Assembly: GCA_041659445.1 (NCBI GenBank)
Contig: JBAZYG010000001.1
Location: forward strand, 155,068-219,067
DNA: 64,000 nt
Reading direction: 5' to 3'
Origin: Candidatus Pacearchaeota archaeon
Lineage (GTDB): Archaea; Nanobdellota; Nanobdellia; Pacearchaeales; GW2011-AR1
Shown here one piece after another: positions 5,451 to 52,093 of this stretch. The translations under genes were made by a program, and so were the position numbers. The number at the start of each line of letters is the position of its first letter. Positions within the stretch are counted from its first letter, which is position 1. The notes below the pieces were generated by a model. The model had not been told where the DNA came from and did no database searches. It worked only from the letters and a program-made list of their open reading frames with translations.

Positions 5451-6005
5451 ATGATAATTATAGCATGGGTTTTGATTATTTTAGCAGTTTTAATAGTAAT
5501 AATGCTTTTCAGTTATTACAATAGGTTTGTTGTTTTAGCAAATAGAATTGATAATTCATTAAGTCAAATTGATGTTCAATTAAAACGAAGAGCAGATTTA
5601 ATTCCAAATCTTTTGGAAACTGTTAAAGGTTATGCTAAACATGAAAAAGTAATAATGGAAACAGTTACTAAAGCAAGAAGTGCAATGATTTCTGCTAAAG
5701 ACTTGCCTTCAAAAATAAAAGCTAATAATGTTTTGGAAGGTGCTTTAGGAAAATTATTCGCAATTGCCGAGGGTTATCCTGATTTAAAAGCAAATACAAA
5801 TTTCTTAGAATTACAAAAAGAACTTTCTGCAACAGAAGATAGAGTTGCTTATTCAAGACAATTTTACAATGATTCAATTTTGAGTTATAATAACATGGTT
5901 CAAAAATTCCCAGGATTAATTTTTGCAGGAATTTTTGGAAGAAAAGAAAAAGAATATTTGAAAATTGAAGAAGTTGATAAAAAACTTCCTAAAGTTGAAT
6001 TTTAA
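5451..6005 (+). CDS. lemA: LemA family membrane protein.
   Basis: N-terminal TM segment followed by the LemA signature ...QIDVQLKRRADLIPNLLETVKGYAKHE... Confidence 0.85.
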   Translation: MIIIAWVLIILAVLIVIMLFSYYNRFVVLANRIDNSLSQIDVQLKRRADLIPNLLETVKGYAKHEKVIMETVTKARSAMISAKDLPSKIKANNVLEGALGKLFAIAEGYPDLKANTNFLELQKELSATEDRVAYSRQFYNDSILSYNNMVQKFPGLIFAGIFGRKEKEYLKIEEVDKKLPKVEF

Positions 6006-35019: not shown

Positions 35020-35727
35020 ATGTTAAGCATAATTATTCCTACAAAAAATGAAGGAAAGTATTTGGGTCTTTTACTAAAATCAATTAAAAATCAAAGTTTT
35101 AAAAATTTTGAAATTATTGTTGCAGATGCAAATTCAAAGGATAATACTAAAGAAATAGCTAAAAAGTATGGTTGCAAGATTGTAAAAGGTGGTATGCCTT
35201 GGACAGGAAGAAATAACGGTGCAAAAATTGCTGAAGGAGACTTCTTTGTTTTTATAGATGCAGATGTTGTTTTACCTGAAAAAAATTTTGTTGAAAATTG
35301 TTTGAAAGAAATTTCTGAAAGAAATTTGGATGTTGCTGGAGTTTTATTAAAACCAAGGATAGATAAAAAAAAGCATCTTTTGTTTTTTTACAAATTAATA
35401 TATTCTTTTTTGAATTTTTTGATGAAGATTTCTCAAAACTCTAAATCTCCTTTAATGCAAAATTGTATGTTTTCTAAAAAAAATATTTATACTAAAATTA
35501 ATGGTTTTGATGAAACTCTTGTATATGCAGAAGATTCGGATTATGCTAGACGAGCAGTTAATAAAATTCATGCTAAGTTTGGAATAATAAATAAAAAGAT
35601 TTATGTTTCAACAAGAAGACTTGAAGAAAAAGGATTTAAACTTATTTTTAAAGTAATTTATATGGCAATTTTGAGAAATTTTAAGGAATTAAGAAAAAAA
35701 AATTCTAAAATTAGATATTTTGATTAA
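35020..35727 (+). CDS. Family 2 glycosyltransferase.
   Basis: MLSIIIPTKNEGKYLGLLLKSIKNQSFKNFEIIVADANSKDNT..., DAD and DxD-like (FIDADV) motifs. Confidence 0.85.
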   Translation: MLSIIIPTKNEGKYLGLLLKSIKNQSFKNFEIIVADANSKDNTKEIAKKYGCKIVKGGMPWTGRNNGAKIAEGDFFVFIDADVVLPEKNFVENCLKEISERNLDVAGVLLKPRIDKKKHLLFFYKLIYSFLNFLMKISQNSKSPLMQNCMFSKKNIYTKINGFDETLVYAEDSDYARRAVNKIHAKFGIINKKIYVSTRRLEEKGFKLIFKVIYMAILRNFKELRKKNSKIRYFD

Positions 35728-37415: not shown

Positions 37416-37488
37416 TGCCCCGTCCGGGATTCGGACCCGGGTTCCAGCCTTGAAAGGGCTGTGTCCTTGGCCTCTAGACTAACGGGGC
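37416..37488 (-). tRNA. tRNA-Glu (anticodon TTC), 73 nt, no encoded CCA.
   Basis: Hand fold: acceptor GCCCCGT/ACGGGGC, D-arm GTCT-AGAGGCCAA-GGAC, anticodon arm CAGCC-CTTTCAA-GGCTG, variable GAAC, T-arm CCGGG-TCCGAAT-CCCGG, discriminator A. The T-loop reads TCCGAAT (C at position 55 instead of the near-universal U), which is unusual. Confidence 0.75.
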
Positions 37489-37591: not shown

Positions 37592-37615
37592 GAGCCTGTA
37601 GCTCAGCCTGGTTAG
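37592..37615 (+). repeat. 24-nt exact duplicate of the 5' end of the downstream tRNA-Ile gene (gagcctgtagctcagcctggttag).
   Basis: Identical to 37654-37677 (acceptor 5' strand plus D-arm). Separated from the gene by 38 nt. Confidence 0.7.
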
Positions 37616-37653: not shown

Positions 37654-37776
37654 GAGCCTGTAGCTCAGCCTGGTTAGAGCACCGCTCTTATATGAATGTT
37701 GCTTTCAAAAAGCAATATCCTTTCTGGATTAGTCTAAGAAAGGCGGGGGTCCTCGGTTCAAATCCGAGCAGGCTCA
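37654..37776 (+). tRNA. tRNA-Ile (anticodon TAT, reads AUA) with a 48-nt intron at the canonical 37/38 position (intron 37693-37740).
   Basis: Hand fold: acceptor GAGCCTG/CAGGCTC, D-arm GCTC-AGCCTGGTTA-GAGC, anticodon stem CCGCT/GGCGG, exon loop C-T-TAT-A|A, variable GGGTC, T-arm CTCGG-TTCAAAT-CCGAG, discriminator A. BHB-like motif: 4-bp helix CTTA/TAAG flanked by 3-nt bulges TAT and AAA. Mature length 75 nt. Confidence 0.8.
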
Positions 37777-37988: not shown

Positions 37989-40900
37989 ATGGTGAAAAAG
38001 TTTAAAATCTATTTGTTAATTTGTATAATATTATTTGTGATTTTAATTGATTTTTTATCTGCAGAATCAATTTCTGATACTCTTCATTTAAACATTCAAA
38101 CAACTTATTCAAATGGGACAATTCAACCTGGAACTTTTACTTTTGTTTTTAATATAACTACAGATTCTGCATGTTCAAATGTTGTTTATTCAAATTCTTC
38201 AACCTTGACTACTGATTCAAGAGGAATTATTTCTTATTATCTTGAAAATGTAAATTTGAATTTTACAAATCAGTATTACTTATGTTATTACAGAGACGGT
38301 GTTTTGATTAATAATTCTAAAATTGCAAGAAGCCCATATTCTTTTACAACAAAAAACGCAACAGTTAGTGGATTAATTAAAGATGCTAATTTAAACATGA
38401 CTGGATATAATATTAGTGCAGATTATTTTTCAGGGACAGGAGCAAATTTAACAGAAAATTTAACTATTGGGAAAAAAATCATTTTTGGATTTGGTGAAAC
38501 AATTGATAATTTAGTCAGTGGTTGGATTAAAATAACTGGAAGTGCTAATGTTACAGGAAGTTTAATTGTCAACGGAAATATTAATTCTACTACTGGAGAT
38601 ATTTGTATAACAGGAGGAAATTGTTTGAGTACAGTTGCTTCAGGAACAGAACCTTTATGGACAGCAAACTTTACTGCTTATAACACGTCGTGGAGTTCAA
38701 CTTATAATTCAAGTTATGTTCCTTATACTGGCTCAACTGCGAATGTTAGTTTAGGAGCTTATAATTTCAGCGTCGGAGGAACTGATTTTTTTGTTAATTC
38801 AAATAAAGATTCAATTTCATCTGGAGGTTCAACAGCTTCGGGATTATATTCTGTTGCTTTAGGTGAATCAAATATTGCTTCAGGAGATGATTCAGTATCT
38901 TTAGGTTATAGTAATACTGCTTCAGATACTGGTGCTGTTGCCATTGGTTATCAATCAACTTCTTCTGCACCTTATTCAACAGCCTTAGGATATATGACAA
39001 CTGCTTCTGGACAAAAATCAACTGCTTTTGGTGCATCAACAATAGCGTCATCAGATTATGCAATTGCAATGGGTTATTCAACTATTGCATCAGGAACATA
39101 TTCTACAGCAATTGGTAGAGGAATAAATGTTTCTGGTTCAAATTCTGTTGGTATTGGATTAAATGATCAATCAGGAACTGTTCTTAGTCAAGCAAATACA
39201 ATGTCAATTATGGGTGGAACAGTTGGAATAAATACAACAGCTCCTAAAAATACTTTAAATGTCATCGGAACAGGAAATATAACTGGAAATGTAACTTCAC
39301 AAACTGATTTTTGTATTGAAGGTGGAAATTGTTTAAGTAGTGCTGTTGGAAGTTTAGGAAATATTTCAGGAGGTGGAGTAGAAAATTATATTCCTAAATG
39401 GATTGGATCAGCAAGTTTAGGGAATTCACTTGTTTATGATAATGGAACTTATGTTGGTATTGGAACAGCAACTCCAACATATCTTCTCGACGTGAATGGA
39501 AGTGGAAATATTGTGAATGATTTTAGAGTTGGAAATGATTTATTTGTTACAGGTTGGGTAAATTCAAGTGAAGATGTTTGCATTGTTGGAGGAAATTGTT
39601 TGAGTACAGTTGCTTCAGGAACAGAACCATTATGGACTGCTAACTTTACTGCTTATAATTCTTCTTGGTCATTTACTTATAATGCAACTTATGACTCTTA
39701 TAATTCAACTGGATTAATTAAAGATTGGAATTCTTCGGGTTTAATAATAAATTGGAGTACTGAATCTGGAATTGAATCTGATCCTTTATGGACTGCTAAC
39801 TTTACTGCTTATAACTCGTCGTGGTCTTCAACTTATAATTCAAGTTATAATACTGCTTATAATTATACAATAAATGGGACATTTATGAGGAAAGATGGAG
39901 ACAATGGTACTGGAGTTTATAATTTTGGAGGAGCTTGGAACGACGGAGGATTAACAATTTCTAATGGAAATTTGTATGCTCAAACTGTTTATGTTTATAA
40001 TATAACTTCTTTGCAAGTTTCAAATTTAAACATTAATGGTTCTTTAATTCCGCAAATTGGTTTTGATAATACTTTTGATGTTGGAAGTTCTTCATTAAGA
40101 TGGAGAGATTTATACGTCGGTAGAAATATTTTTTCAAATGGAAGTATTAATGTTGATTCAGGAGGAGATATTTGTATTGTTGGGGGAAATTGTTTGTCAA
40201 CATCTGGAACAGGTTCTGGAACAATTACAGGAGCTGGAACAGCGACGTATGTTCCCTTATGGAACGGAACTTCTTCGTTGAATAACTCAGTGATTTATCA
40301 AAATGGAAGTAAAATTGGAATTAATACCACTATTCCGACAGCGACATTAGATGTTAATGGAAATATTCATGCTTCAGATATTTTTGCAACAGATGTTATT
40401 TCTGGAAGCACTGTTGGTTTTGTTTCAGTTGGTTTAGGTGGTTCTATTGGTGCACATAAAACTAATTATGATGCTAAAATTACCTTTCCTGAAACAGATG
40501 ATATTTCTATTTATACAGGACTTTCTGGAGAATTATTAAGAATTTCTGGGGATGATGGTGCTGTTGGAATTGGCGAATCAATTCCAGTGTATAAATTAGA
40601 GATTAAGGGAGTTCCTATGCCCTTGGAAACACCGTCGGGTAATGGTTATTTTGGAATAACTAATATTTCAGATGGAGATATTTTAGAAATTGATTATTCT
40701 GGGAATGTTGGTATAAATACTTCAACTCCACAAAATAAATTAAATGTCGTCGGAGATGGAAATTTTACAGGAAATTTATATTCTAATGGAGCACAAGTTT
40801 TAACATCTTATACTGAAACAGAACCATTATGGACAGCAAACTTTACTGCTTATAACACGTCGTGGAGTTCAACTTACAATTCAACATATGCAAATTGGAA

Positions 40901-42527
40901 TAAAACTTATGCTGATACTTTATATTCATCAATCTCAGAACCTTTATGGACAGCAAACTTTACTGCTTATAACACGTCGTGGAGTTCAACTTATAATGCA
41001 AGTTATGATGCAAAATTAAGTGGAGTAGGAACTTCAGGTTATATTGCTGCGTGGAATGGAACTTCTTCGTTGAATAATTCAATTATTTATCAAAATGGAA
41101 CTACCTTAAATATTTCTGGAAATATCTTTGTTCAAGGCGGTTCTGGAGATGTGAATAGTAATGGTGCTGTTAATTCAGCTGATTCATTATGGGTTAAACA
41201 ATATTTAGCAGGAGCAGTTAATTTAACTGCAAAGCAATATGCAGAAGCAGATGTAAATGGAGATGGAAGAGTTGATTATTCAGATGTAGATTTAATTGAG
41301 CAAAAACTTACTGTTGAAGGATTGCCTTTAAATGAAGTTCAAAGAGAAGGAAAAAGAGCTGTTGATTCAGCATATTTTATTGATTATGACAAAGATTTTG
41401 GGATAGGAAATTATTTTTCTGATGCTGGAGATTATAATCTTACAAGTAAACTTTATGTTAATGGAACAGGAAATATCACACAAGATTTTTATGTTGGAAA
41501 TGATTTAATTGTTACAGGTTGGGTAAATTCAAGTGAAGATTTTTGTATTGTTGGAGGAAATTGTTTAAGTAATAGTGCAGATGTTTCAGAACCTTTATGG
41601 ACTGCAAACTTTACTGCTTATAACACGTCGTGGAGTTCAACTTATAATTCAAGTTATGTTCCTTATACTGGCTCAACTGCAAATGTTACTTTAGGAGATT
41701 ATAATTTTTCAGTTGGGACTTCTGATTTTTTTGTTAATGCGGATTTAAGTTCAATTTCGTCTGGGGCAAGCTCAACAGCTTCGGGATTATATTCTGTTGC
41801 TTTAGGATATGTATCAACAGCTTTAGGGCCTTCTTCAGTAGCTGTTGGGAATCATGCATTCTCTTCAGGTGATTCTTCAATAGCATTAGGGCATTATACA
41901 AATGCTTCAGGTGATTCTTCAATAGCATTAGGTGATTTAACAAATGCTTCAGGAGCTTCTTCAACAGCGACTGGTTTTGCAACAACAGCTTCGGGATTTT
42001 TATCAACAGCAATGGGTAGAGAAATTATTGCAGGAGGAGATTATAGTTTTGCTATTGCATTGAATGATCAAAATAATTTGAATGTTTCTCAAGCAAATAC
42101 AATGGCAATTATGGGGGGAAATGTTGGTATTGGAACAGCGACTCCTAATTCTATTTTAACAACTAAAGGAAATAATGTTTCATTTTTATCTGTTGGTGGA
42201 GAAAAAAGATTTTATTTTTTATCAAACGCAGATGGTAATGAAGCTGTTTTTACAATGTATGATTTTTCAGAAACTGCAAGAATTTATTTGAATACTTATT
42301 CAGATAGTTACCTTAATGTTCCAACTGGAAAATTTGGTATTAATACTTCAGCTCCTAAAAATACATTAAATGTTGTCGGAGATGGAAATTTTACTACAAA
42401 TCTTTTTGTTGGAAGTAATATAACAACAGAAAAATTAGTTTTTGAAACAAGTGCTTCTCATTACATCGACGATAATTCAACTTGTGTTAAAATTTACGGA
42501 AGTACAAGTATTTTAGAAATATGTTAA
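37989..42527 (+). CDS. Giant secreted adhesin-like surface protein (1512 aa) with Hep_Hag/YadA-head-like repeats, tail-fibre-like 'VGIGTxxPxxxLxVxG' motifs, six 'EPLWTANFTAYNTSWSSTYNSSY' repeats and an internal dockerin module.
   Basis: Signal MVKKFKIYLLICIILFVILIDFLSA. Runs of (S/T)xA(L/I)G heptads (e.g. SVALGESNIASGDDSVSLGYSNTASDTGAVAIGYQS...). Dockerin duplicate GDVNSNGAVNSAD...ADVNGDGRVDYSD at about 41140-41310. NxS/T sequons throughout. Confidence 0.7.
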   Translation: MVKKFKIYLLICIILFVILIDFLSAESISDTLHLNIQTTYSNGTIQPGTFTFVFNITTDSACSNVVYSNSSTLTTDSRGIISYYLENVNLNFTNQYYLCYYRDGVLINNSKIARSPYSFTTKNATVSGLIKDANLNMTGYNISADYFSGTGANLTENLTIGKKIIFGFGETIDNLVSGWIKITGSANVTGSLIVNGNINSTTGDICITGGNCLSTVASGTEPLWTANFTAYNTSWSSTYNSSYVPYTGSTANVSLGAYNFSVGGTDFFVNSNKDSISSGGSTASGLYSVALGESNIASGDDSVSLGYSNTASDTGAVAIGYQSTSSAPYSTALGYMTTASGQKSTAFGASTIASSDYAIAMGYSTIASGTYSTAIGRGINVSGSNSVGIGLNDQSGTVLSQANTMSIMGGTVGINTTAPKNTLNVIGTGNITGNVTSQTDFCIEGGNCLSSAVGSLGNISGGGVENYIPKWIGSASLGNSLVYDNGTYVGIGTATPTYLLDVNGSGNIVNDFRVGNDLFVTGWVNSSEDVCIVGGNCLSTVASGTEPLWTANFTAYNSSWSFTYNATYDSYNSTGLIKDWNSSGLIINWSTESGIESDPLWTANFTAYNSSWSSTYNSSYNTAYNYTINGTFMRKDGDNGTGVYNFGGAWNDGGLTISNGNLYAQTVYVYNITSLQVSNLNINGSLIPQIGFDNTFDVGSSSLRWRDLYVGRNIFSNGSINVDSGGDICIVGGNCLSTSGTGSGTITGAGTATYVPLWNGTSSLNNSVIYQNGSKIGINTTIPTATLDVNGNIHASDIFATDVISGSTVGFVSVGLGGSIGAHKTNYDAKITFPETDDISIYTGLSGELLRISGDDGAVGIGESIPVYKLEIKGVPMPLETPSGNGYFGITNISDGDILEIDYSGNVGINTSTPQNKLNVVGDGNFTGNLYSNGAQVLTSYTETEPLWTANFTAYNTSWSSTYNSTYANWNKTYADTLYSSISEPLWTANFTAYNTSWSSTYNASYDAKLSGVGTSGYIAAWNGTSSLNNSIIYQNGTTLNISGNIFVQGGSGDVNSNGAVNSADSLWVKQYLAGAVNLTAKQYAEADVNGDGRVDYSDVDLIEQKLTVEGLPLNEVQREGKRAVDSAYFIDYDKDFGIGNYFSDAGDYNLTSKLYVNGTGNITQDFYVGNDLIVTGWVNSSEDFCIVGGNCLSNSADVSEPLWTANFTAYNTSWSSTYNSSYVPYTGSTANVTLGDYNFSVGTSDFFVNADLSSISSGASSTASGLYSVALGYVSTALGPSSVAVGNHAFSSGDSSIALGHYTNASGDSSIALGDLTNASGASSTATGFATTASGFLSTAMGREIIAGGDYSFAIALNDQNNLNVSQANTMAIMGGNVGIGTATPNSILTTKGNNVSFLSVGGEKRFYFLSNADGNEAVFTMYDFSETARIYLNTYSDSYLNVPTGKFGINTSAPKNTLNVVGDGNFTTNLFVGSNITTEKLVFETSASHYIDDNSTCVKIYGSTSILEIC
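38590..41720 (+). repeat. Family of near-identical intragenic DNA repeats (>=6 copies of the ~70-nt unit gaacc(t/a)ttatggac(a/t)gc(a/t)aactttactgcttataac(a/t)cgtcgtgg...). The outermost copies extend to ~130 nt of near-identity.
   Basis: Copies start near 38649, 39624, 39781, 40821, 40938 and 41589. Blocks 38641-38780 and 41581-41720 are almost identical. A second repeat, ggaggaaattgtttgagtacagttgcttcaggaacagaacc, occurs at about 38610 and about 39590. Confidence 0.8.
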
Positions 42528-42528
42528 A

Positions 42529-45500
42529 ATGGTTAATATTAAATCAAAAAAAAAGTTTTTTTTATTTTTGTTAGTCGTAACTTTTTTTATAATTCTTTTT
42601 GAAATTAGCTCGACTTCTGCTTGGCTTACTGGATATGATTACAGAAAACAAATTAATCTTACTGGAGGAACTAATGCAGGAAATGATTATCAAATAAAAT
42701 TAACAATAGGAAATACATCAGGAGGAGATTTTAATTTAGGTGGAAATGCAACAAATTTTCCAAATGATATAAGATTTACAGATGACGACGGAGAAACACT
42801 CTTGCCCTATTGGATTGAAAATACAACAAGTCCAGCAATTTTTTGGGTTAAAGTAAATGATTCTCTTAATTCAAATCAAATTATTTATATTTATTATGGA
42901 AACTCAACTGTTTCAAGTGCAACTAACGGAACTGCGACTTTTGTAATGTTTGATGATTTTGAAAGCACTGCTTTAAATGCAGTCCCAGATTCAAGCAAAT
43001 GGGTAATTACTGGAACAGACGCAAACGATAATGTAACTATTTATTTAGACCCAGCAAATGCTTCAAATCAAGTTGCAAGGACAATTGAACAAATTGATGG
43101 AGTTGGAACAAGATTATGGGTTAAAAATCTTACTTCAAGTAATTATTCTTTTGATTTTGATTATAGAACAAGTGTAAATAGAGTTTATTATTTTTACATA
43201 TATGATGGTGCTACTATTAGGACAACTATGAATCTTGATACTACATTTCATTGGTATAATGGGGCAGCTTATCAAAATTTTGCCCCAGCAACTCCATCTC
43301 ATTCTACAAATACTTGGTACGATACCGAAATATTTGTAGCAGGACCTTTTTTAAATATGACTATTAATGGAGTAAATTATAAAGGAGGAGTTCGTTCAAA
43401 TGCAACAGCATCAGTTACCTCATTAGTGATGAATCCACATACTGCAAGTTTAACTCCTCCATTATACCAATATGTTGATGATTTTAGAGTAAGAAAGTTC
43501 TCTATGAATCCTCCAGTATTAAGTGCTGTCGGAGGACAAGAATTAATTCAAGGATTGACCTGTGGAAACTTATCTGATGGAACTTATACACTCACACAAA
43601 ATGTAACAAGTAACACTACTTGTTTTATAACAAATTCTACAAATGTTATTCTTGATTGTCAAGGATTTTATATTTATGGAAATAATTCTCCATCTTCTTA
43701 TGGAGTATATTCAAATTATCCCAATACCACAGTTAAAAATTGTAATATTTTTAATTATTCTTCAGGTATAATTTTAGACAGCAATGCAAATTCAACATTA
43801 GAAAACAATACTATAAATGTTACTTTTAGCTCGGGTTCTGATGATTATGGAATTAAATTGGGTTCTGGAGTAAATTCAACAACTAAAAATAATATAATTA
43901 ATGGTTCAGGAACAAATATTTATGCTTATATGTCTTATGCAATAAATAGTTCTTCAATTAATGACACAATATTTGTCCCTTCGGGTAGGGCTTCATTTTA
44001 TTCCGTTGGAACTACAATGAATCAAGTTTTTAATTTCACAAAACTAAATGGGAAAGGAGTAATATTTTATCAAGGAAATCCTTCATTTTACAATTTAAAA
44101 ATGAATACAACTTCAGGTTCATCTATGGATTTACCAAGAAATATTACCTTAAAAAACATAACAATAAATACAAATGGAGATGCTGATGCTGTAACAATAT
44201 CAGGTGTAGGCGTTCATTTAGATTGTGAAAACGGAGTAATTAATGGTTCAAATATAGCATCAAGAAGTGGAGTATATTCTTCAGTAGGAAATGCTAAAAT
44301 TAAAAATTGCAATATAAATAATTTCAATTATTGTATTAGGATATATGGAGGTATGAATAATTCTGTTGAAAATATTATTGCAACAACATCTTATAATGGT
44401 GGGATTCCATTAAATATTTATTTTCAATCAAATTATACTCTTGTGAATAATTTCACAGGTTCAGCTCTTGTTAATGGTTTTGGTTTATCAATTCAATATT
44501 CAAGCCATAATGTAATTAATAATTCTAACTTTAATTCACTTGGAGGTAGAGGAATTTATTTTTATGGTTTAATTGGAACAGGTTTAACTTTAAATAACAC
44601 CCTAAACAATTCTTCAGGGAATTCTTCTTCAAATTATGGAATTCAACTTTCAAGTTCTAATGATAATCTTATTTATAATTCCAATGGTTCAAGTAATACC
44701 TTAACAGGAATAGATTTAACAGATTCAAGTAATAATTATTTTAATAATATAATTGGAAATTTAACAAACAATCCTACATCAACAGGTGACGGAATTACTC
44801 TCGAATCTAATTCAATAAATAATACTTTTGAAAATTCTTTTGCAATATCAAACTCTCAAAAGGTAGATTCTTACAATTCTGCTTTTAGAATTTTTTACAG
44901 CAATAATAACACTCTTAATAATGTCACAGCAAATGTTACAGGAATTAATGCAACAGGGATTTCCTTATATTCTTCAAATTATACTTTAATTAATGGTTCT
45001 GTTGGAGATAGCAACAATTTTAATAATTCGGGTTCAGGTATGCTGTTATCAAATTCAAGTCATAATGTACTTAATAATTCTGTTGCAATAAGTGGTCTAG
45101 GAAATGGGGCTTTGGGATTAAATACAAATAGTAATTATAATAATATTGTAAATTTTATTGGAATTGCAAACTCAACTGAATATGGATGCAAATCTGTTGA
45201 GCCAAAATTAACTAACAACGTTGCCATTTTCATAACAACAAGTAGTAGTTATAATAATTTAACAAATGTTTCAGGTTATAGTCGAAGTGAAGACGGAATT
45301 GCATTTTATAATAATTCTGCAAACAATATTGTAAATAATAGTTTGGGTTTAACTTATTCAAGTGTTGGGATTTTATTAACCAATTGGGCGTCTGATAATC
45401 AAGTTATTAATAGCACAGCAATCGCAATGGGTGGTTCTTGTGGAGGTGGAAAAGCATTTGGTATTGCAGATAATTCAAGTAGAAATAATATAACTAATAT

Positions 45501-46248
45501 AACAGCAATTCAATATGGTGCTGTTTCAACAGATGGGGCTTTTTTTATACGATGCATTGGGGCAACAGCCGAATGTCATCCTAATTTTAATAATACAGTA
45601 ATTAATTCTAAAATTTTAATTTACAATTCTACAAATGGTATTTCAATAACAGACAATTCAACAGGAAATGTAATAAGAAATATTTCAATAAATTCAACAT
45701 ATACTTCTTCAACATTAAGTTTGCTAAAAGTTAATTCATCAAATAATGTTTTTTGCTTAAACAATTTTACAAGTAATCTTGGAATTTATATAAATGATTC
45801 AAATGGAAGCAATACTTATAATTGCTCTTATGGTGGAAAGGTTCAAGGAAATATTTATGAAAATGTGAATAATGGAACAATAAATGTTCTCGGTTCAGAA
45901 AATTCTTCAATAGCAAATTACTATATTGGAAAATATGGTTCTGGATATCCTTATAATCAAACAAATTCTTTAAATAAAATCTATGGTGCGGTAGACTACG
46001 TTCCTTTAACAATTTATTTAACTTCTTGCGCTTATTCTGGTTCTGGAAATTGGGTAATAAATTGTTCAGAAAATTGCACCATATTAAGTAATACAGATGT
46101 AGTGGAAAATAATATTTCTATACTTGGAGTAGGAACTTTTAGAACTTCTGCAAATATAACTGGTTTTAGTAAATTAATAATTGCAGGAATAGATTCTTCA
46201 AATATTTGTAGAGTTACTTGTTTTGATGGGGGATGTTTTAAAGATTAA
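42529..46248 (+). CDS. Giant secreted protein (1239 aa): DUF2341-like N-terminal domain, LamG/concanavalin-like region, long parallel beta-helix (PbH1-like) repeat region.
   Basis: Signal/anchor KKFFLFLLVVTFFIILFEISSTSA. WLTGYDYRKQINLTGG...NFPNDIRFTDDDGETLLPYWIEN...WVKVN...IYIYYGN matches the DUF2341 pattern. Then dozens of N-x-(I/V)-x-N-x-S / SSNNxIxNN turns. Start is 1 nt after the preceding stop. Confidence 0.7.
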   Translation: MVNIKSKKKFFLFLLVVTFFIILFEISSTSAWLTGYDYRKQINLTGGTNAGNDYQIKLTIGNTSGGDFNLGGNATNFPNDIRFTDDDGETLLPYWIENTTSPAIFWVKVNDSLNSNQIIYIYYGNSTVSSATNGTATFVMFDDFESTALNAVPDSSKWVITGTDANDNVTIYLDPANASNQVARTIEQIDGVGTRLWVKNLTSSNYSFDFDYRTSVNRVYYFYIYDGATIRTTMNLDTTFHWYNGAAYQNFAPATPSHSTNTWYDTEIFVAGPFLNMTINGVNYKGGVRSNATASVTSLVMNPHTASLTPPLYQYVDDFRVRKFSMNPPVLSAVGGQELIQGLTCGNLSDGTYTLTQNVTSNTTCFITNSTNVILDCQGFYIYGNNSPSSYGVYSNYPNTTVKNCNIFNYSSGIILDSNANSTLENNTINVTFSSGSDDYGIKLGSGVNSTTKNNIINGSGTNIYAYMSYAINSSSINDTIFVPSGRASFYSVGTTMNQVFNFTKLNGKGVIFYQGNPSFYNLKMNTTSGSSMDLPRNITLKNITINTNGDADAVTISGVGVHLDCENGVINGSNIASRSGVYSSVGNAKIKNCNINNFNYCIRIYGGMNNSVENIIATTSYNGGIPLNIYFQSNYTLVNNFTGSALVNGFGLSIQYSSHNVINNSNFNSLGGRGIYFYGLIGTGLTLNNTLNNSSGNSSSNYGIQLSSSNDNLIYNSNGSSNTLTGIDLTDSSNNYFNNIIGNLTNNPTSTGDGITLESNSINNTFENSFAISNSQKVDSYNSAFRIFYSNNNTLNNVTANVTGINATGISLYSSNYTLINGSVGDSNNFNNSGSGMLLSNSSHNVLNNSVAISGLGNGALGLNTNSNYNNIVNFIGIANSTEYGCKSVEPKLTNNVAIFITTSSSYNNLTNVSGYSRSEDGIAFYNNSANNIVNNSLGLTYSSVGILLTNWASDNQVINSTAIAMGGSCGGGKAFGIADNSSRNNITNITAIQYGAVSTDGAFFIRCIGATAECHPNFNNTVINSKILIYNSTNGISITDNSTGNVIRNISINSTYTSSTLSLLKVNSSNNVFCLNNFTSNLGIYINDSNGSNTYNCSYGGKVQGNIYENVNNGTINVLGSENSSIANYYIGKYGSGYPYNQTNSLNKIYGAVDYVPLTIYLTSCAYSGSGNWVINCSENCTILSNTDVVENNISILGVGTFRTSANITGFSKLIIAGIDSSNICRVTCFDGGCFKD

Positions 46249-47443
46249 AATGAAAATTGGAAATTTATTTTTTGTTTTTTTTATTTTTCTTTTTTCAATT
46301 TTAACTTTTGTAATTGTTTCAGCAGATGTTATTTCTGTTAATTCAGGAGGAAGTGAAAATGTAATAATAACTGCAGATAAATATCTTGAAGGTTTTTTCT
46401 TTTCTTCAAGAGACATTAATAATTTACCGAGCAATCCTTTAAATGTAAAATTGGTTTCCTTGAATGGAAGAAATGAGTCAGATACTGATTTGAATTGTTC
46501 AGGATATATTACTGACGTTGAGAATTTGACTTTGACAGTATATGTAGATTGGATTAAAGATGATAATTCACAATTTATTCAAGTTTTTGAAAATCAATTA
46601 AACAATTCTGTGTTTTCAACTTTGTTAAATAATGGAAATTTAAGTTTAGGAGATGTTTGGAAATGTTCATTGAAAGTTTCTGATGGAGAATATAATAGTA
46701 GTTGGATTGACTCAAATGAATTAACTATTATTGATATAACAAATCCAAATGTAACAATTGTTCATCCAAATTCTTCTGCTAATTACACAAGTTTAGATAT
46801 TGATTTCAATATTTCGATTTCTGAAAATGAAAATATTTCTTGGTGTGGTTACAGCGTCAATGGAACAGCGAATGTAACAATGATTAGATTAAATGATTCT
46901 TATTTTTGGCATGAACCCCCAAACTTAACAGTTGGATTAAATAATGTAACTTTTTATTGTAATGATACTTCTGGAAATTGGGGAACAAATTTCACGAATT
47001 TTACAATTTTAGACGAGGCTGCAATTGCAATTCAATTGTCTCCTGCATTAAGTTTAACTGTTAATTGGACTTTGGAAAGTTTGCCTGCTAATGATTTGAA
47101 CGCAGAAGGAAATAATTTAACTGGAGATACTTTGTATTGGGTAAATTTATCTGTAACTGCAACTACTGCAGATTTATACGTGAAAGCCGACGGAGATTTG
47201 CAAACTTTAGATTTAGATATTCTTGGTTTAGGAAATGAAACTTTTTGTGCAAATTTAACAAATTCTTCTGTTCCTGATTTAAATAGATTGATTATGAATA
47301 CAAGTTATGTTTTAATTGCTGAAGATCTTCCTAGTAGTATAATTTATTTGAAATTTTATCTTGATGCTCCGTCGGGACAAGCAGCAGGAACTTATTTGAA
47401 TAATTTAGATTTCAAAGCAGTAAATCATGGAAACACTCCTTAA
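46223..47443 (+). CDS. Secreted protein (406 aa). The C-terminal half belongs to the paralog family defined by ...F(W/Y)LD.P.GQAAGTY.N...FK.V.
   Basis: Signal ...FLFSILTFVIVSA|DV. C-terminus ...YLKFYLDAPSGQAAGTYLNNLDFKAVNHGNTP. The region from ~residue 250 aligns with the full length of the two ~200-aa paralogs. Overlaps the upstream gene by 26 nt. Confidence 0.55.
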   Translation: MMGDVLKIKMKIGNLFFVFFIFLFSILTFVIVSADVISVNSGGSENVIITADKYLEGFFFSSRDINNLPSNPLNVKLVSLNGRNESDTDLNCSGYITDVENLTLTVYVDWIKDDNSQFIQVFENQLNNSVFSTLLNNGNLSLGDVWKCSLKVSDGEYNSSWIDSNELTIIDITNPNVTIVHPNSSANYTSLDIDFNISISENENISWCGYSVNGTANVTMIRLNDSYFWHEPPNLTVGLNNVTFYCNDTSGNWGTNFTNFTILDEAAIAIQLSPALSLTVNWTLESLPANDLNAEGNNLTGDTLYWVNLSVTATTADLYVKADGDLQTLDLDILGLGNETFCANLTNSSVPDLNRLIMNTSYVLIAEDLPSSIIYLKFYLDAPSGQAAGTYLNNLDFKAVNHGNTP

Positions 47444-47518
47444 TTTTTTAAAAGAAATTAATTTCACTAGAAAAAATAAATCTTTATAAAGTATATTCTC
47501 TTATTTAAATCAATTAAT

Positions 47519-48136
47519 ATGAAAAAGAAAGGTGTGATATTTTATCGTTTGATTTTGATTTTAATTCTTTTAGCAGTTATTGTTTTATTAATTGTTCAAA
47601 ATCTTCCTAAAGTTACTGGAAATTCAATTACTGGTTTTGCAACAAGTGGAAATACTACTTCAAATGTTACAATTACTTCTTATTTATCAATTGCGTTTTG
47701 TGATAATTTATCTACAGGAATTTGGTTTGGAGAAGTTGCAAGTTTACCTGTAACAAATCAAAATGGAACACATAATGCAGATGGTGCTAGTAGTGGAAGT
47801 ACTTATTGTTTGAATGTTTCTGCTGATTCAAATACAAATGTTGATTTTTGTACAAAAGCAAGTGGAAATTTGACAACAACCGGAGCAGATGTTATTGTTT
47901 TAGCAAATGAAACTTGGAATAATGCAACAACCACAGATGCAACAACTCCATCTTATGCTACTGAAAATATTTTGACAACAGATTATGTCAAATCCGGTGG
48001 TAATGTTGCTAGCGACGGTACTGGTGTCAATTATTACAGATTCTGGTTAGATATTCCAGGTGGACAAGCAGCAGGAACATATAATAATACTGTATTTTTC
48101 AAAGGAGTAAATACTGGAAATCCATGTGGTGCATAA
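47519..48136 (+). CDS. Small secreted protein, paralog family member (205 aa).
   Basis: N-terminal hydrophobic segment. ...NTNVDFCTKASGNL...ANETWNNAT...YVKSGGNV...YYRFWLDIPGGQAAGTYNNTVFFKGVNTGNPCGA. Confidence 0.55.
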   Translation: MKKKGVIFYRLILILILLAVIVLLIVQNLPKVTGNSITGFATSGNTTSNVTITSYLSIAFCDNLSTGIWFGEVASLPVTNQNGTHNADGASSGSTYCLNVSADSNTNVDFCTKASGNLTTTGADVIVLANETWNNATTTDATTPSYATENILTTDYVKSGGNVASDGTGVNYYRFWLDIPGGQAAGTYNNTVFFKGVNTGNPCGA

Positions 48137-48773
48137 AATTAAAATGAAGAAAAAAAAGGTGACATTCGTTGAGAAAATTTTGTTTTTAAGTTTAGTCTTG
48201 ACTTTGATTTTACCTTTGGCAACTGCAGGTGTTGGTGTTAAATGGAGTAAAGAATCTTCTTTAGTTTCAGAAAATTCAAAAGTTTGTATGTCTTATGATG
48301 TTTATAATCCATGGCCACAAGATACTTATGCTACAATTAGTTTATCTCCGGAATTAATGGAAATTATTGATTATATTGGTTCAGATATTGTTTTCCTTCC
48401 TAATGAGACATCAAGTACAAATGCTATTCCTGTTGAATTTTGTTTTAAAACACCAAAAGTTTATGAAAAAGATTGTTGGGTTGGAGATGTATTTTTTTGT
48501 AAGCAAGATTGTTTAGAAGAAATGAAAACTTATGAAGGTGAAGTGTTGGTAATGGAAACTTCTCCAGATCAATCATCTCAATCTGCACAAGGTTCTGCTA
48601 CTAAAATGTCTGTTTCTGCACCTTTGAGAATTAGAGTTCAATGTGAAGCACAAAATAGAAATTTCAGTGCATTGTATGTTCTTGTTGGACTTATTGCATT
48701 AATATTATTGATAATAAATTTAGTTAAAAACAAGAAAAGCAAGCAAAATAAAAAGATTAAGAAAAAGAAATAA
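48126..48773 (+). CDS. Secreted Cys-containing protein with a C-terminal TM anchor and a poly-Lys tail (215 aa).
   Basis: Signal ...LILPLATA|GV. C-terminus ...ALYVLVGLIALILLIINLVKNKKSKQNKKIKKKK. The true start may be the internal MKKKKV (48144), which contains an A8 tract. Confidence 0.5.
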   Translation: MVHKIKMKKKKVTFVEKILFLSLVLTLILPLATAGVGVKWSKESSLVSENSKVCMSYDVYNPWPQDTYATISLSPELMEIIDYIGSDIVFLPNETSSTNAIPVEFCFKTPKVYEKDCWVGDVFFCKQDCLEEMKTYEGEVLVMETSPDQSSQSAQGSATKMSVSAPLRIRVQCEAQNRNFSALYVLVGLIALILLIINLVKNKKSKQNKKIKKKK

Positions 48774-48779
48774 AATCAT

Positions 48780-49364
48780 ATGATTTCTAAAAATCAAATT
48801 TTTTATAAGACTTTTTTGATTGTGATAATTTTTTTATGCGTTATCTTAATTATTTTTCAAAATTCAAATAATTTTACTGGAAATTATTTATTAAATACTA
48901 CATCTAATGTTTCATTATTTAAATATTATTCAATTGCGTTTAGTGATAATTTGTCTTCTGGAATTGAATTTGGAACAATAGAAAATCTTCCTGCAGTTAG
49001 TGTTAATGCAACATATAATTATTTGGGTTTGAGTAATTCAACAGAATATTTTATTAATGTTTCAAATGATTCAAATACAAATATTGATTTTTGCATAAAA
49101 GCCGACGGAGATTTAGAAAGTATTGCAAGTGATATTTTGGGATTAGGAAATGAAACTTATAATAATGCAACATTCACTAATTTATCCTCGCCCTCGGATA
49201 CAGAGGTTTTGTTGACGACTTCTTATGTTAAATCAGGAAGTAATGTTTTAATTGGTGGAGTAAATTATTATCGTTTTTGGCTTGATGTTCCATCAGGACA
49301 AGCAGCTGGAACATATAACAATACTGTTAATTTCAAAGCAGTTGAAACAGATTATTCTTGTTAA
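48780..49364 (+). CDS. Small secreted protein, paralog family member (194 aa).
   Basis: ...NTNIDFCIKADGDLESIASDILGLGNETYNNAT...YVKSGSNV...YYRFWLDVPSGQAAGTYNNTVNFKAVETDYSC. Collinear with the 47519 protein over its full length. Confidence 0.55.
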   Translation: MISKNQIFYKTFLIVIIFLCVILIIFQNSNNFTGNYLLNTTSNVSLFKYYSIAFSDNLSSGIEFGTIENLPAVSVNATYNYLGLSNSTEYFINVSNDSNTNIDFCIKADGDLESIASDILGLGNETYNNATFTNLSSPSDTEVLLTTSYVKSGSNVLIGGVNYYRFWLDVPSGQAAGTYNNTVNFKAVETDYSC

Positions 49365-49402
49365 TTAGAAAGCATTAAAAATCTGAAATTATTATTTTCT
49401 TT

Positions 49403-50863
49403 ATGATTAAAAAAGAGGTGTTTATTTTTATCTTTATTTTTTGTGTATCTCTTGTGTTTGCAATAACTGGTTATGTTACAGAAGGAAATTCTCCGTCATC
49501 AGTTACTATTGAAGGTTTGAGAATTGTTTATTCTACTTTTAATGGTTCTACAACTAATTTTAATTCCTTGAATACATCTGAATTAAATAATTTATCATTG
49601 ATGACTTTAGAAAAATCTAGTTATGGTAAAGTTATTTTTAATCAAAGTGTTAATTTGACTTTAACTGCAGGAGTGGATAAAATTGTTAATTTTGATTTGG
49701 ATTTGAACATTTCTAATAATTTAATTTATATTGATGATTCGGATTTACCTTATTTAAATAAAACAGTTACTATGTTTTTATATGGTCTTAGTTATACAAA
49801 TCCAAGGATAATTCATAATGGTGTTGTTTGTAGTGATTGTACTAAATTAAGTTATTCTGGAGGTAATTTAACTTTTTCAGCAACTACTTTTAGTGGAACT
49901 TATTATGCACAAGAAACTCCTGTTTCTCCTGTATGTGGAAATGGTGTTTGTGAATCTGGAGAAACTTCTACTAGCTGTTCTGCAGATTGTGGAAGTGGTG
50001 GTGGAGGCGGTGGAGGGGGAGGCGGAGGCGGTGGTGGAGTTACTCCTCCGATGACAACAGGCGTTAGTTTTTACATTGTTCCAGATTTTTTAGCAATTTC
50101 AATGTATAGAGGAGAATATTTTCAAAAAAATATTATTATTGTTAATAACGGAACCGAGGATTTAATAATTGGAGCATTTGTTTCAGGATTAGATAAATTT
50201 GTTTTTCCTCAAGAAGAAATATTTGAAGTTAAAGCTGGACAAAATTATACTTTAAGATTAAATATTTATGTTTCTAGTTCAACAAATATTGATGTTTACG
50301 TCGGTAAGGTTTTATTTCAATCAAAATCACTTGATAAAAGTATTAATTTTATTTTAGATGTTAAAGAAAAAGGGGCGTTATTTGACATTAGAACAAATGT
50401 TACAAAAAGATATGTTCCTCCAGGAAGAGATGTTCTTGCAAAAATTTTAATTATAAATAAAGGAGAATTAAGAAATTTTGATGTTTCTTTAGAATATAAA
50501 ATTTTAGATTTTGAAAATAATAGTTATATGCCCAAACAAGAAGATTTTGCAATAAATGAAACTTTTGCAAATACCTTTTCCTTGCATGTTCCTTCTGATC
50601 TTCCAATTGGACAATATTTATTCTACGCTAAAGTTAATTATGGAAATGTTAGTGCAACTAGTTATGATACATTTATTGTTGAAACAGTTTCATTTTGGTC
50701 TTGGATAATTTTAATAATAGTTATTATAATTTTGATTGCAATAATCTTTTTTATCTTGAGAAAAAGGAAAAAGAAAAAAGAAGGGAAACTTAAACCAAAA
50801 TCATTTTTTAAGAAACCTTCTTTAGTTAAAAGAAAATTAAGATATCCTAAAATAAATGAATAA
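49403..50863 (+). CDS. Surface protein: signal peptide, N-domain, CGNGVCESGE...C..DC knot-like motif, Gly14 linker, two Ig-like segments, C-terminal TM plus basic tail.
   Basis: MIKKEVFIFIFIFCVSLVFA signal. PVCGNGVCESGETSTSCSADCGSGGGGGGGGGGGGGGVTPP. C-terminus FWSWIILIIVIIILIAIIFFILRKRKKKKEGK. Confidence 0.55.
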   Translation: MIKKEVFIFIFIFCVSLVFAITGYVTEGNSPSSVTIEGLRIVYSTFNGSTTNFNSLNTSELNNLSLMTLEKSSYGKVIFNQSVNLTLTAGVDKIVNFDLDLNISNNLIYIDDSDLPYLNKTVTMFLYGLSYTNPRIIHNGVVCSDCTKLSYSGGNLTFSATTFSGTYYAQETPVSPVCGNGVCESGETSTSCSADCGSGGGGGGGGGGGGGGVTPPMTTGVSFYIVPDFLAISMYRGEYFQKNIIIVNNGTEDLIIGAFVSGLDKFVFPQEEIFEVKAGQNYTLRLNIYVSSSTNIDVYVGKVLFQSKSLDKSINFILDVKEKGALFDIRTNVTKRYVPPGRDVLAKILIINKGELRNFDVSLEYKILDFENNSYMPKQEDFAINETFANTFSLHVPSDLPIGQYLFYAKVNYGNVSATSYDTFIVETVSFWSWIILIIVIIILIAIIFFILRKRKKKKEGKLKPKSFFKKPSLVKRKLRYPKINE

Positions 50864-50908: not shown

Positions 50909-52093
50909 ATGTTAATAGGGCTTGTTGGAAAACCTTCTGTTGGGAAAAGTACATTTTTTAAAGCAGCAACTTTAGCAGAAGTAGAAATTGCAAGTTATCC
51001 TTTCACGACGATAAAAGCAAATCATGGTGTTGGTTATGTCAAAGTAGATTGTATTGATAAAGAATTTAATGTTAAGTGTAATCCGAGTCATGGTTTTTGT
51101 ATTAATCATAAAAGATTTGTGCCAATTGATTTAATGGATGTTGCTGGTTTAGTGCCTGGAGCTTCTGAAGGTAAAGGTTTAGGAAATCAATTTTTGGATG
51201 ATTTAAGACAAGCAGATTGTTTTATTCACATTGTTGATATTTCTGGTGAAACAGACGTCGAAGGAAAACCAACAAAAGGTCATGATCCAAAAGAAGATAT
51301 TTTATTTTTAGAAGAAGAACTTGATAAATGGTATCATGGAATTTTAATAAAAGTATGGACTTCATTTTCAAAAAAAGTAGATAATGAAAAAAGAAAATTT
51401 TCAGAAGCAATTGTTAAACAATTTTCAGGATTAAAAGTTAAAGAAGAACATGTCAAAGAAGTTTTGTTAAAATTAAATCTTCCTGAGAAATCTTCTATTT
51501 GGAGTGAAGAACAAGTTAAATCTTTTGCAAAAAAACTTAGACAAATTTCAAAGCCTATGATTATTGCTGCAAATAAAATAGAACTTAGCGATGGTAAAAG
51601 AAATTACGAGAAAGTTAAAAAAGAATTTCCTGAGTTGAAAATAATTCCTTGCTCTGCAGATTCAGAATTAGCTTTAAGGCAAGCTACGAAAGCAGGTTTG
51701 ATTGAATATATTCCTGGTGAAAATCATTTTGAAATTTTAAAAGAATTAAATGAAAAACAAAAATCTGCTTTGATTAAAATTCAAAAAGAAATTTTGGATG
51801 TTTTTGAATTTGGGACAGGAGTTCAAGAAGTTTTGAATTATGCTATTTTTGATATTTTAAAATATCTTGCAATTTTTCCTGCATCTGCAAATAAATTAGG
51901 AGATAGTAAAGGAAATATTCTTCCAGATTGTTTTTTATTGCCTCCAGATTCAACAGCGTTGGATTTTGCTTTCTATCTTCATACTGATTTTGGTAAAAAT
52001 TTTATTAAGGCAATTAATGCAAGAACAAAAATGGCTCTTGGAAAAGATTACAAATTAAAGAATAGAGATGCTTTAGAAATTATTACAAGATAA
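50909..52093 (+). CDS. Obg-family GTPase of the archaeal YchF/Ygr210-like type.
   Basis: G1 GLVGKPSVGKSTFFKAAT. G3 DVAGLV. G4 NKIE. C-terminal TGS-like domain. 394 aa. Confidence 0.8.
   Translation: MLIGLVGKPSVGKSTFFKAATLAEVEIASYPFTTIKANHGVGYVKVDCIDKEFNVKCNPSHGFCINHKRFVPIDLMDVAGLVPGASEGKGLGNQFLDDLRQADCFIHIVDISGETDVEGKPTKGHDPKEDILFLEEELDKWYHGILIKVWTSFSKKVDNEKRKFSEAIVKQFSGLKVKEEHVKEVLLKLNLPEKSSIWSEEQVKSFAKKLRQISKPMIIAANKIELSDGKRNYEKVKKEFPELKIIPCSADSELALRQATKAGLIEYIPGENHFEILKELNEKQKSALIKIQKEILDVFEFGTGVQEVLNYAIFDILKYLAIFPASANKLGDSKGNILPDCFLLPPDSTALDFAFYLHTDFGKNFIKAINARTKMALGKDYKLKNRDALEIITR

Follow-up and report, generated by a model that had tools for sequence, protein, structure and literature searches.

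How DPANN archaea attach to hosts or particles is, to our knowledge, essentially unknown, because almost none of them has been cultivated. A 64,000-nucleotide stretch of DNA from a Candidatus Pacearchaeota archaeon (contig JBAZYG010000001.1, positions 155,068 to 219,067; hereafter the window, with a G+C content of ~26%) raises this question in concrete form: it carries seven co-directional open reading frames (ORFs) on the + strand, spanning positions 37989-50863 (12.9 kb), which a model's earlier reading of the letters (the original prediction) took to be a single candidate system for cell-surface adhesion or host attachment. Is this run one system, and how might its products work together? 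We find that it consists of a conserved five-gene core, g3-g7 (46250-50863), and two accessory giant genes, g1 and g2; only the core part of the predicted single system is conserved, and we make this split because g1- and g2-like genes occur elsewhere only in one related lineage (loci L005/L007) and lack the domain, here named PIL, that defines the core. We suggest, tentatively, that g3-g7 encode a membrane-anchored stalk of immunoglobulin (Ig)-like modules joined by β-strand complementation and displaying an adhesin. The locus makes a strong candidate for the means by which these archaea cling to hosts or surfaces.

The seven genes, named here in order, are:

37989-42527, + strand: g1, 1512 amino acids (aa), from the ORF call
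42529-46248, + strand: g2, 1239 aa, beginning 1 nt past g1
46250-47443, + strand: g3, 397 aa from the ATG at 46250
47519-48136, + strand: g4, 205 aa
48144-48773, + strand: g5 (ANC), 209 aa
48780-49364, + strand: g6, 194 aa
49403-50863, + strand: g7 (G7), 486 aa

Gene g3 had been listed from a TTG at 46223, giving 406 aa; the ATG at 46250, 1 nt past the g2 stop, yields a 397-aa protein with a normal leader, and because g3 begins there the g1/g2 and g2/g3 gaps are both 1 nt. Genes g1 and g2 are translationally coupled upstream of the core, and the remaining intergenic gaps of the run measure 6-75 nt. For g5 an alternative start at 48126 would give 215 aa, the NCBI annotation having 209 aa; g4 and g6 are exact matches of WC812_01290 and WC812_01300.

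Judged from their hydrophobic leaders, the products of all seven genes look exported. An N-terminal hydrophobic segment is present in 7/7 proteins, where the original prediction had placed signal peptides, and a C-terminal transmembrane (TM) helix only in g5 and g7, the two proteins that it had described as C-terminally membrane-anchored. Per 100 aa there are 4.4-6.5 sequons in g1-g4 and g6, 2.9 in g7 and 1.0 in g5; for the window's 51 other ORFs the figure is 0.8. Sequons are about twice as frequent as expected from each protein's own composition in g1-g4, g6 and g7 (76 observed against 36 expected in g1, 78 against 42 in g2). Enrichment is thus strong in g1-g4 and g6 and intermediate in g7, g5 having the background density, and the predicted pair of sequon-laden giants of 1512 and 1239 aa, 1 nt apart, is borne out. 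Exported products, sequons and adhesin-type domains in the giants fit a surface adhesion or host-attachment locus in general terms.

The key element of the core is a shared domain. Paralogy links g4, g6 and the last ~150 aa of g3, and it is their common domain that we name PIL; g6 is 56% identical to g4 and matches the PIL profile with an E-value of 6e-84. Of the three small paralogues originally predicted, two are therefore small proteins, and the third is the C-terminal domain of the 397-aa g3:

46991-47434, + strand: PIL domain of g3, at its extreme C-terminus (profile match, E 5e-27)

The g3 protein comprises a leader, two β-rich domains and this C-terminal PIL, and g4 a hydrophobic N-terminal helix, a short cassette described below and the PIL domain. 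Full-length orthologues of g3 (394-410 aa, 48-67% identity) occur in six genomes, and g3 also matches the C-terminal 340 aa of ~700-aa forms that contain LamG.

Is the core found elsewhere? We examined five contigs and 59 species-level genomes from a scan of GTDB, annotated with our own hidden Markov models (HMMs). A module recurs in ~60 loci, made up of a large protein ending in PIL, one to three small PILs, ANC and G7, and with one exception these loci are labelled either as DPANN archaea (Pacearchaeota, Woesearchaeota, Nanoarchaeota and, in a few cases, Aenigmatarchaeota) or simply as “archaeon.” That exception (L057, contig CAYLKE010000004.1) has a complete module on a contig labelled “uncultured Methanosarcinales archaeon”; the Methanosarcinales- and Aenigmatarchaeota-labelled modules likely reflect mis-binning or differences in labelling, not a wider distribution. 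Writing L for the large PIL protein, p for a small PIL, A for ANC and G for G7, the orders met most often are LpAG (15 loci), LpApG, the order in the window (11 loci), and LppAG (7 loci), and an Obg-like GTPase of the same type as that encoded after g7 often adjoins the module downstream. Between genomes the core proteins share 40-65% identity. Large proteins differ about tenfold in length (~260 to >3300 aa) and often carry Laminin_G_3; of 46 distinct ones, 43 have a PIL that ends no more than six residues before the C-terminus. A literature search found nothing relevant to a prior description of such a module in DPANN.

Conservation of this kind might suggest an envelope scaffold, that is, an S-layer-like or pseudo-periplasmic lattice in which small PILs, ANC and G7 form a planar anchored array, with G7 and ANC as SlaB-like stalks and the large protein as decoration. 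Near-universality of the module, its fixed chromosomal position by a housekeeping GTPase, well-conserved core sequences, secreted parts rich in sequons and small components that may all be membrane-tethered speak for such a scaffold. We nevertheless consider it improbable, as known archaeal S-layer proteins are large and none was matched by sequence or fold, and a 160-aa domain of pilin-like topology, found also at the C-terminal end of hypervariable adhesin-like proteins, is more in keeping with adhesin display. The locus is conserved in relatives, as a known S-layer operon might be, but is not such an operon.

The PIL domain had been called unrecognised, and it is both that and the key conserved element of the module. 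A profile built from g4, g6 and g3 retrieved 396 close relatives, none with a Pfam domain, whose named sources are Pacearchaeota, Nanoarchaeota or “archaeon,” and an exhaustive search with the PIL profile found at least 602 cluster representatives, mostly of ~195 aa; PIL also closes the C-terminus of proteins of 545, 1569, 1755 and 3174 aa. For the small family and for g5 and g7, searches of Pfam, NCBIfam and PHROGs gave nothing above threshold and profile searches of PDB sequences gave no match; no model in the first three collections covers PIL or ANC. The conserved motif of PIL is RFWLD...GxYNN, not a dual WxL, and the WxL domain (PF13731) has no match in 63 PIL-family members even at E-values up to 10. 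As candidate homologues, PIL and ANC reach an hhalign probability of only 11.6%, with some echo of motifs.

Its fold is more telling. An AlphaFold2 model of g4 (mean pLDDT 89.8) has a helix at residues 4-28, a low-confidence stretch at 29-50 and then a β-sandwich; donor strands are likewise of low confidence in monomer models (PMC11494351). The best structural matches are an environmental TLP-1b fibril (score 7.8), CsuA/B (7.7), CupE (6.8) and FimI/FimA (6.5), followed among archaeal structures by a Pyrobaculum bundling pilin (6.4), a DUF1102 tube (6.0) and the Saci_0406 thread (5.9), with further matches to PapA/E/F/K/H, CfaB and CanX (5.5) and to TasA (5.2). Foldseek, as an independent method, ranks CfaB, TLP-1a, CsuA/B, SafA, FimA, the thread, PapE and CanX at the top; the first three have probabilities of 0.96-0.99, and no E-value in this group is below 0.009. 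The likeness of the g4 model to donor-strand pilins is thus moderate in score, even modest, and very consistent in kind.

The same model invites another reading, in which the hydrophobic helix of small PILs is kept after cleavage by a prepilin peptidase and forms the core of a type IV pilin-like filament, with the Ig domains outside. The helix followed by a sandwich, and the MKKKG-hydrophobic start of g4, would suit it. It is nonetheless very hard to credit: no [KR][GA] cleavage motif is conserved across the family, a low-confidence linker of ~25-30 residues separates helix from sandwich, no assembly ATPase or platform gene occurs in the loci examined, and the top structural matches include neither an archaellin nor a type IV pilin of archaea. 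With the class III motif and the machinery both absent, we rejected it.

A subclass of PIL proteins of ~290 aa has a coiled-coil N-terminus of ~95 residues, predicted to be cytoplasmic, before the hydrophobic segment. Their architecture points to a type II membrane anchor in place of a cleaved signal peptide. Members include P0235, P0245, the protein encoded at 7608-8543 of L050 and a 275-aa PIL of L060; in the loci with this subclass the usual G7 is missing or atypical.

The two remaining core proteins are the membrane-anchored ones. Their TM helices, and the cassettes of g4, g6 and g7, lie at:

47624-47671, + strand: cassette of g4
48870-48917, + strand: cassette of g6
49463-49516, + strand: cassette of g7
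48657-48734, + strand: C-terminal TM helix of g5
50669-50773, + strand: TM helix of g7

ANC, represented here by g5, is found in nearly all related loci. It has a predicted signal peptide, a PapD/WxLIP-like Ig domain of ~135 aa, six conserved Cys and a Lys-rich tail; its AlphaFold2 model (pLDDT 90.6) shows a signal peptide, the single ~135-aa sandwich and the TM helix, and its best PDB match is WxLIP. G7 is longer, and runs from a leader and cassette through an N-domain, a CGNGVCE...C..DC motif and a poly-Gly linker to two PapD/ASH-like Ig domains, the TM helix and a basic tail. The Cys-rich motif is of the DUF4215 type, DUF4215 being recognised in a few members only. Of 60 G7 members, 13 have Ig domains with sub-threshold matches to WxLIP_PGBD (best E 0.007), and there are further matches of this kind to the Cep192, HYDIN/VesB and FixG_C Ig families. 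ANC aligns with the first of the two Ig domains at an hhalign probability of 88.6% (E 2.6e-6), and on this profile comparison the two are distant homologues.

Several observations on G7 stand apart. Its N-domain (49547-49756, g7 aa ~49-118) resembles the Nup98-96 autopeptidase S59 below threshold in 38 of 60 homologues scanned (P0352-P0411; best E 2.2e-4). An active autopeptidase was rejected, as the catalytic H-F-S is not conserved (FSG in g7, FEG in relatives), and the likeness is probably one of fold only. One G7 homologue, P0404, is labelled “Patescibacteria group bacterium” and is 47% identical over half its length, which points either to a mis-binned contig or to gene transfer between DPANN and CPR. 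In another protein, P0207 (698 aa), a single ORF holds a complete small PIL and a complete G7, with the G7 leader kept internally; read-through, an artefact of assembly or a genuine fusion could account for it, and whichever its origin, the joined ORF means that the small-PIL and G7 genes are adjacent.

Small PILs and G7 share one thing besides export, a cassette of 16-18 residues directly after the hydrophobic region of the leader, with the pattern [ILMF]TG[YHFN][AV]TE..[ST][TP]SNV[TS][IV] (in the window, ITGFATSGNTTSNVTI in g4 and ITGYVTEGNSPSSVTI in g7). A loose form of the pattern occurs in 31/85 small PILs and 16/39 long G7 proteins, and in 0/49 large PILs, 0/61 ANC and 0/1361 other ORFs. 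With a scored anchor, the cassette is detected in 87% of small PILs and in 58% of G7 proteins; among 262 other proteins that have a hydrophobic segment at the N-terminus the share is 1.1%. When PIL and G7 are compared with hhalign the cassette alone aligns (19 columns, 53% identity, probability 91.2%, E 1e-6), and G7 retains it where the next domain differs or is missing (L002, L012, L013, L021 and others). Within a locus the PIL and G7 cassettes share 5.76 of 18 residues, against 5.22 ± 0.17 across loci, a value reached in 15 of 10,000 permutations; part of this excess may be shared lineage.

How might these parts fit together? We read the core as a strand-complemented display apparatus because of its inventory: PIL, variable adhesins fused to PIL, tethered PapD/WxLIP-like partners, a shared cassette and heavy glycosylation. 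In the stalk that we favour, G7 would be the membrane anchor and a donor only, giving its cassette, the putative donated strand, to a small PIL. Small PILs would both donate and accept, cassette-to-groove links between them building a short stalk, and the large protein g3 would be the distal acceptor or cap, bound through its C-terminal PIL and presenting variable N-terminal binding domains. ANC, tethered to the membrane, may serve PIL domains not yet assembled as a chaperone or may hold them; the whole structure would be heavily N-glycosylated, and g1 and g2 would be additional secreted adhesins of this lineage. There are precedents for such a donor: TapA gives its N-terminus to TasA (PMC10151520), and archaeal threads are capped by Saci_0405, which only donates (PMC9715654). 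What we observe are the genes and their order, their conservation across genomes, the domains that they share, the likeness in fold and the common cassette; from these we infer the strand complementation, the order of assembly, the length of the polymer and the role in attachment to host or substrate.

Several points weigh against this stalk. No usher or other large β-barrel family is present in the locus or the related loci examined, and the locus holds no other secretion component. Small PILs have a long hydrophobic segment at the N-terminus (median 20 aa), and in view of the coiled-coil subclass this segment may be an uncleaved type II anchor that tethers the cassette. The C-terminal PIL of the large proteins still aligns over an SNVTI-like segment, which makes a clean split between a tip lacking the donor strand and the other subunits doubtful. 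The near-invariant sequon in the cassette could alternatively make it a processing or glycosylation signal.

The main rival to the stalk is a one-to-one complex without polymerisation, of the WxL type. Here ANC, G7 or both would each hold one PIL by a strand of their own, the large protein would be displayed at the membrane, small PILs would be adaptors, stabilisers or competitors, and no fibre would form. Firmicute WxL clusters encode a small WxL protein, a large WxL protein whose domain is always C-terminal and a WxLIP with a C-terminal TM (PMC10599100, PMC9772566), and a strand of WxLIP is predicted to fill a gap in the WxL sandwich (PMC10599100). The gene inventory is the same: in both systems a small domain-only protein is clustered with a large one, whose N-terminal binding domains vary and whose C-terminal domain is that of the small protein, and with an Ig protein that is exported and ends in a TM helix. 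The sub-threshold WxLIP_PGBD matches of G7, the mere one to three small PIL genes per locus, and long hydrophobic N-termini by which small PILs may remain membrane-bound all speak for the complex as well. The differences are as instructive, since the module has no Pfam match to WxL and only sub-threshold ones to WxLIP_PGBD; WxLIP consists of DUF916 (PGBD), DUF3324 (HBD) and a TM, whereas ANC has one Ig domain, not two; and the module has a second anchored protein, G7, whose cassette is shared with small PILs and absent from ANC, a distribution that the complex alone leaves unexplained. Archaea have no peptidoglycan, so that a wall-binding role would lack its target, and the module includes no LPXTG protein. 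The best matches of the PIL model, finally, are pilins that polymerise. We regard the non-polymeric complex as rather unlikely, a serious competitor all the same.

Chaperone-usher pili (type 1, P, CFA/I and the archaic Csu/CupE) offer the other comparison for the stalk. They share the pilin-like Ig fold of PIL, the logic of an adhesin with an N-terminal binding domain and a C-terminal pilin domain (as in FimH and PapG), the PapD-like fold of the co-encoded g5, and a conserved N-terminal segment that is a candidate donor strand. The archaeal module, in contrast, has neither outer membrane nor usher; g5 is single-domain and TM-anchored where the bacterial chaperone is a soluble two-domain periplasmic protein; the proposed terminator or anchor, G7, is a TM protein; and no sequence relation was found.

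Systems without an usher come closer in another respect. Like the proposed stalk, TasA/TapA/SipW and the archaeal filaments AbpA, Saci_0406/0405, CanX and DUF1102 tubes, all of them among the structural matches of g4, have Sec-exported, glycosylated β-sandwich subunits that polymerise through N-terminal donor strands. The donor strand is shared or mimicked by an accessory protein, TapA or Saci_0405, a part that G7 would play here. Homologues of the thread, AbpA and CanX are reported mainly in Thermoproteota, and those of AbpX/TasA more widely across archaeal phyla (PMC12518558). Unlike the module, these systems fuse no subunit domain to giant adhesins and lack a membrane protein of the PapD/WxLIP-like kind. 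The module has no sequence match to the Peptidase_M73/TasA-like profile that would place it with TasA and camelysin, and no SipW-type peptidase lies in the locus. We rate the module as belonging with donor-strand and WxL-type surface assemblies, and as a sequence member of none.

If the stalk is real, the logic of a pilin, a PapD-like partner and a C-terminally fused adhesin, known from bacterial chaperone-usher pili and Firmicute WxL clusters, extends to Archaea, and, to judge by the literature examined, this would be the first archaeal donor-strand system with an adhesin-fused subunit and a chaperone-like (PapD/WxLIP-like) partner. It would bring at least three new families (PIL, ANC and G7) without a Pfam model above its curated threshold. 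One may go further and see an usher-less, membrane-anchored donor-strand pilus of Pacearchaeota and Woesearchaeota, with a hypervariable giant glycoprotein tip and PapD/WxLIP-like membrane partners, as their principal attachment organelle, related by ancestry or convergence to WxL clusters and chaperone-usher pili; this we think possible but doubtful. For DPANN biology a conserved five-gene module with a hypervariable adhesin is a concrete target for attachment studies: its genes can be sought in metatranscriptomes and proteomes, its proteins expressed and imaged, and its large protein used as a marker of host-range evolution.

What, then, of the giants? Pfam recognises adhesin-type and dockerin domains in g1, as had been predicted from the letters:

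38829-39157, + strand: first YadA_head block of g1, with the best Pfam stretch (aa 297-323); repeat family D5
41145-41309, + strand: type I dockerin of g1 (aa 1053-1107; Dockerin_1, E 6.5e-13)
41772-42016, + strand: second YadA_head block of g1; repeat family D5, with a match to PHROG 25468 at aa 1263-1358

The YadA_head repeats (PF05658, formerly Hep_Hag) score 107.5 bits (E 3e-31), in seven stretches, and further internal repeats are CIxGGNCLS (five copies), EPLWTANFTAYN (six) and GINTxxPxxxLNV (six). The head repeats recall the trimeric autotransporters of the YadA family, which g1 resembles in these repeats; it has no YadA β-barrel anchor, and scores only 20-28 bits against NCBIfam YadA and BimA models whose cutoffs are 600-800. 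By hydrophobicity g1 has no TM anchor, and neither g1 nor g2 matches the PIL profile. In g2, DUF2341 stands (aa 79-159, nt 42763-43005, E 5e-23), the predicted β-helix falls marginally below its cutoff (Beta_helix, 25.6 bits against 25.9), and the predicted LamG is undetected, the sole hint being a concanavalin-like match at E 0.022; the body of g2 is Asn-rich and β-helix-like. We treat g1 as a giant secreted fibrous glycoprotein, an accessory and lineage-variable adhesin, and g2 as an accessory giant secreted glycoprotein.

The dockerin had suggested a cellulosome-like assembly in which g1 plugs into cohesin-like small proteins encoded with it. The dockerin is a bona fide type I domain (49.1 bits against a cutoff of 22.9, with two DxNxDGxxD-type loops visible), as in cellulosomal dockerin proteins, here in an archaeon, and g1 has no anchor of its own. 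The pairing did not hold up. Pfam finds no cohesin in g2-g7 or the other exported proteins of the window (the search took in all seven locus proteins and ten others, eight of which have an N-terminal hydrophobic segment), cohesins are not among the top 60 structural matches of the g4 or g5 models, and the small paralogues are pilin-like Ig proteins. With relatives in L005/L007 only, g1 lies outside the conserved module; the core is conserved without a recorded dockerin protein in relatives, precomputed Pfam matches being available for five related loci and including no dockerin. We consider a cellulosome-like arrangement extremely improbable.

The ends of the giants are better conserved than the rest. 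The C-terminal 79 aa of g2 (region 45850-46245) are 57% identical to a 1313-aa protein of L005/L007, and the last ~150 aa of g1 (42069-42524) are 38% identical to an otherwise divergent giant protein of the same loci. No family was recognised in either end; on sequence grounds they could be retention or assembly modules. The G+C content rises to 0.32-0.34 across g1 (38001-42000), against ~0.25 in its flanks, which probably reflects its Gly/Ser/Thr-rich repeats and not a foreign origin.

The run lies between a pair of tRNA genes and the GTPase gene:

37416-37488, - strand: tRNA-Glu, upstream of g1
37654-37776, + strand: intron-containing tRNA, upstream of g1
50909-52093: Obg-like GTPase gene (Pfam), the next gene after g7

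Both tRNAs of the predicted upstream pair are present, on opposite strands. Run with introns allowed, ARAGORN calls the second Ser(tga) with a 48-nt intron at 36/37; the Ser identity is doubtful because the variable loop is short, and a canonical 37/38 splice made by eye gives the anticodon UAU (Ile). An exact 24-nt copy of the 5' end of this tRNA (acceptor and D arm) stands at 37592-37615, 62 nt upstream, and may be a pseudo-tRNA, a recombination scar or the remnant of a split tRNA. This is its sole copy, none being found at the far side of the locus; with no far-side repeat and the module at a conserved chromosomal position, we rejected an island integrated at the tRNA.

Elsewhere in the window, four further genes related to the envelope were noted:

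5451-6005, + strand: LemA protein
18817-20838, - strand: 673-aa exported protein with a weak MG2 (alpha-2-macroglobulin) match
28268-30202, + strand: 644-aa exported lipase-like α/β-hydrolase
35020-35727, + strand: GT2 glycosyltransferase, 2.3 kb upstream of g1

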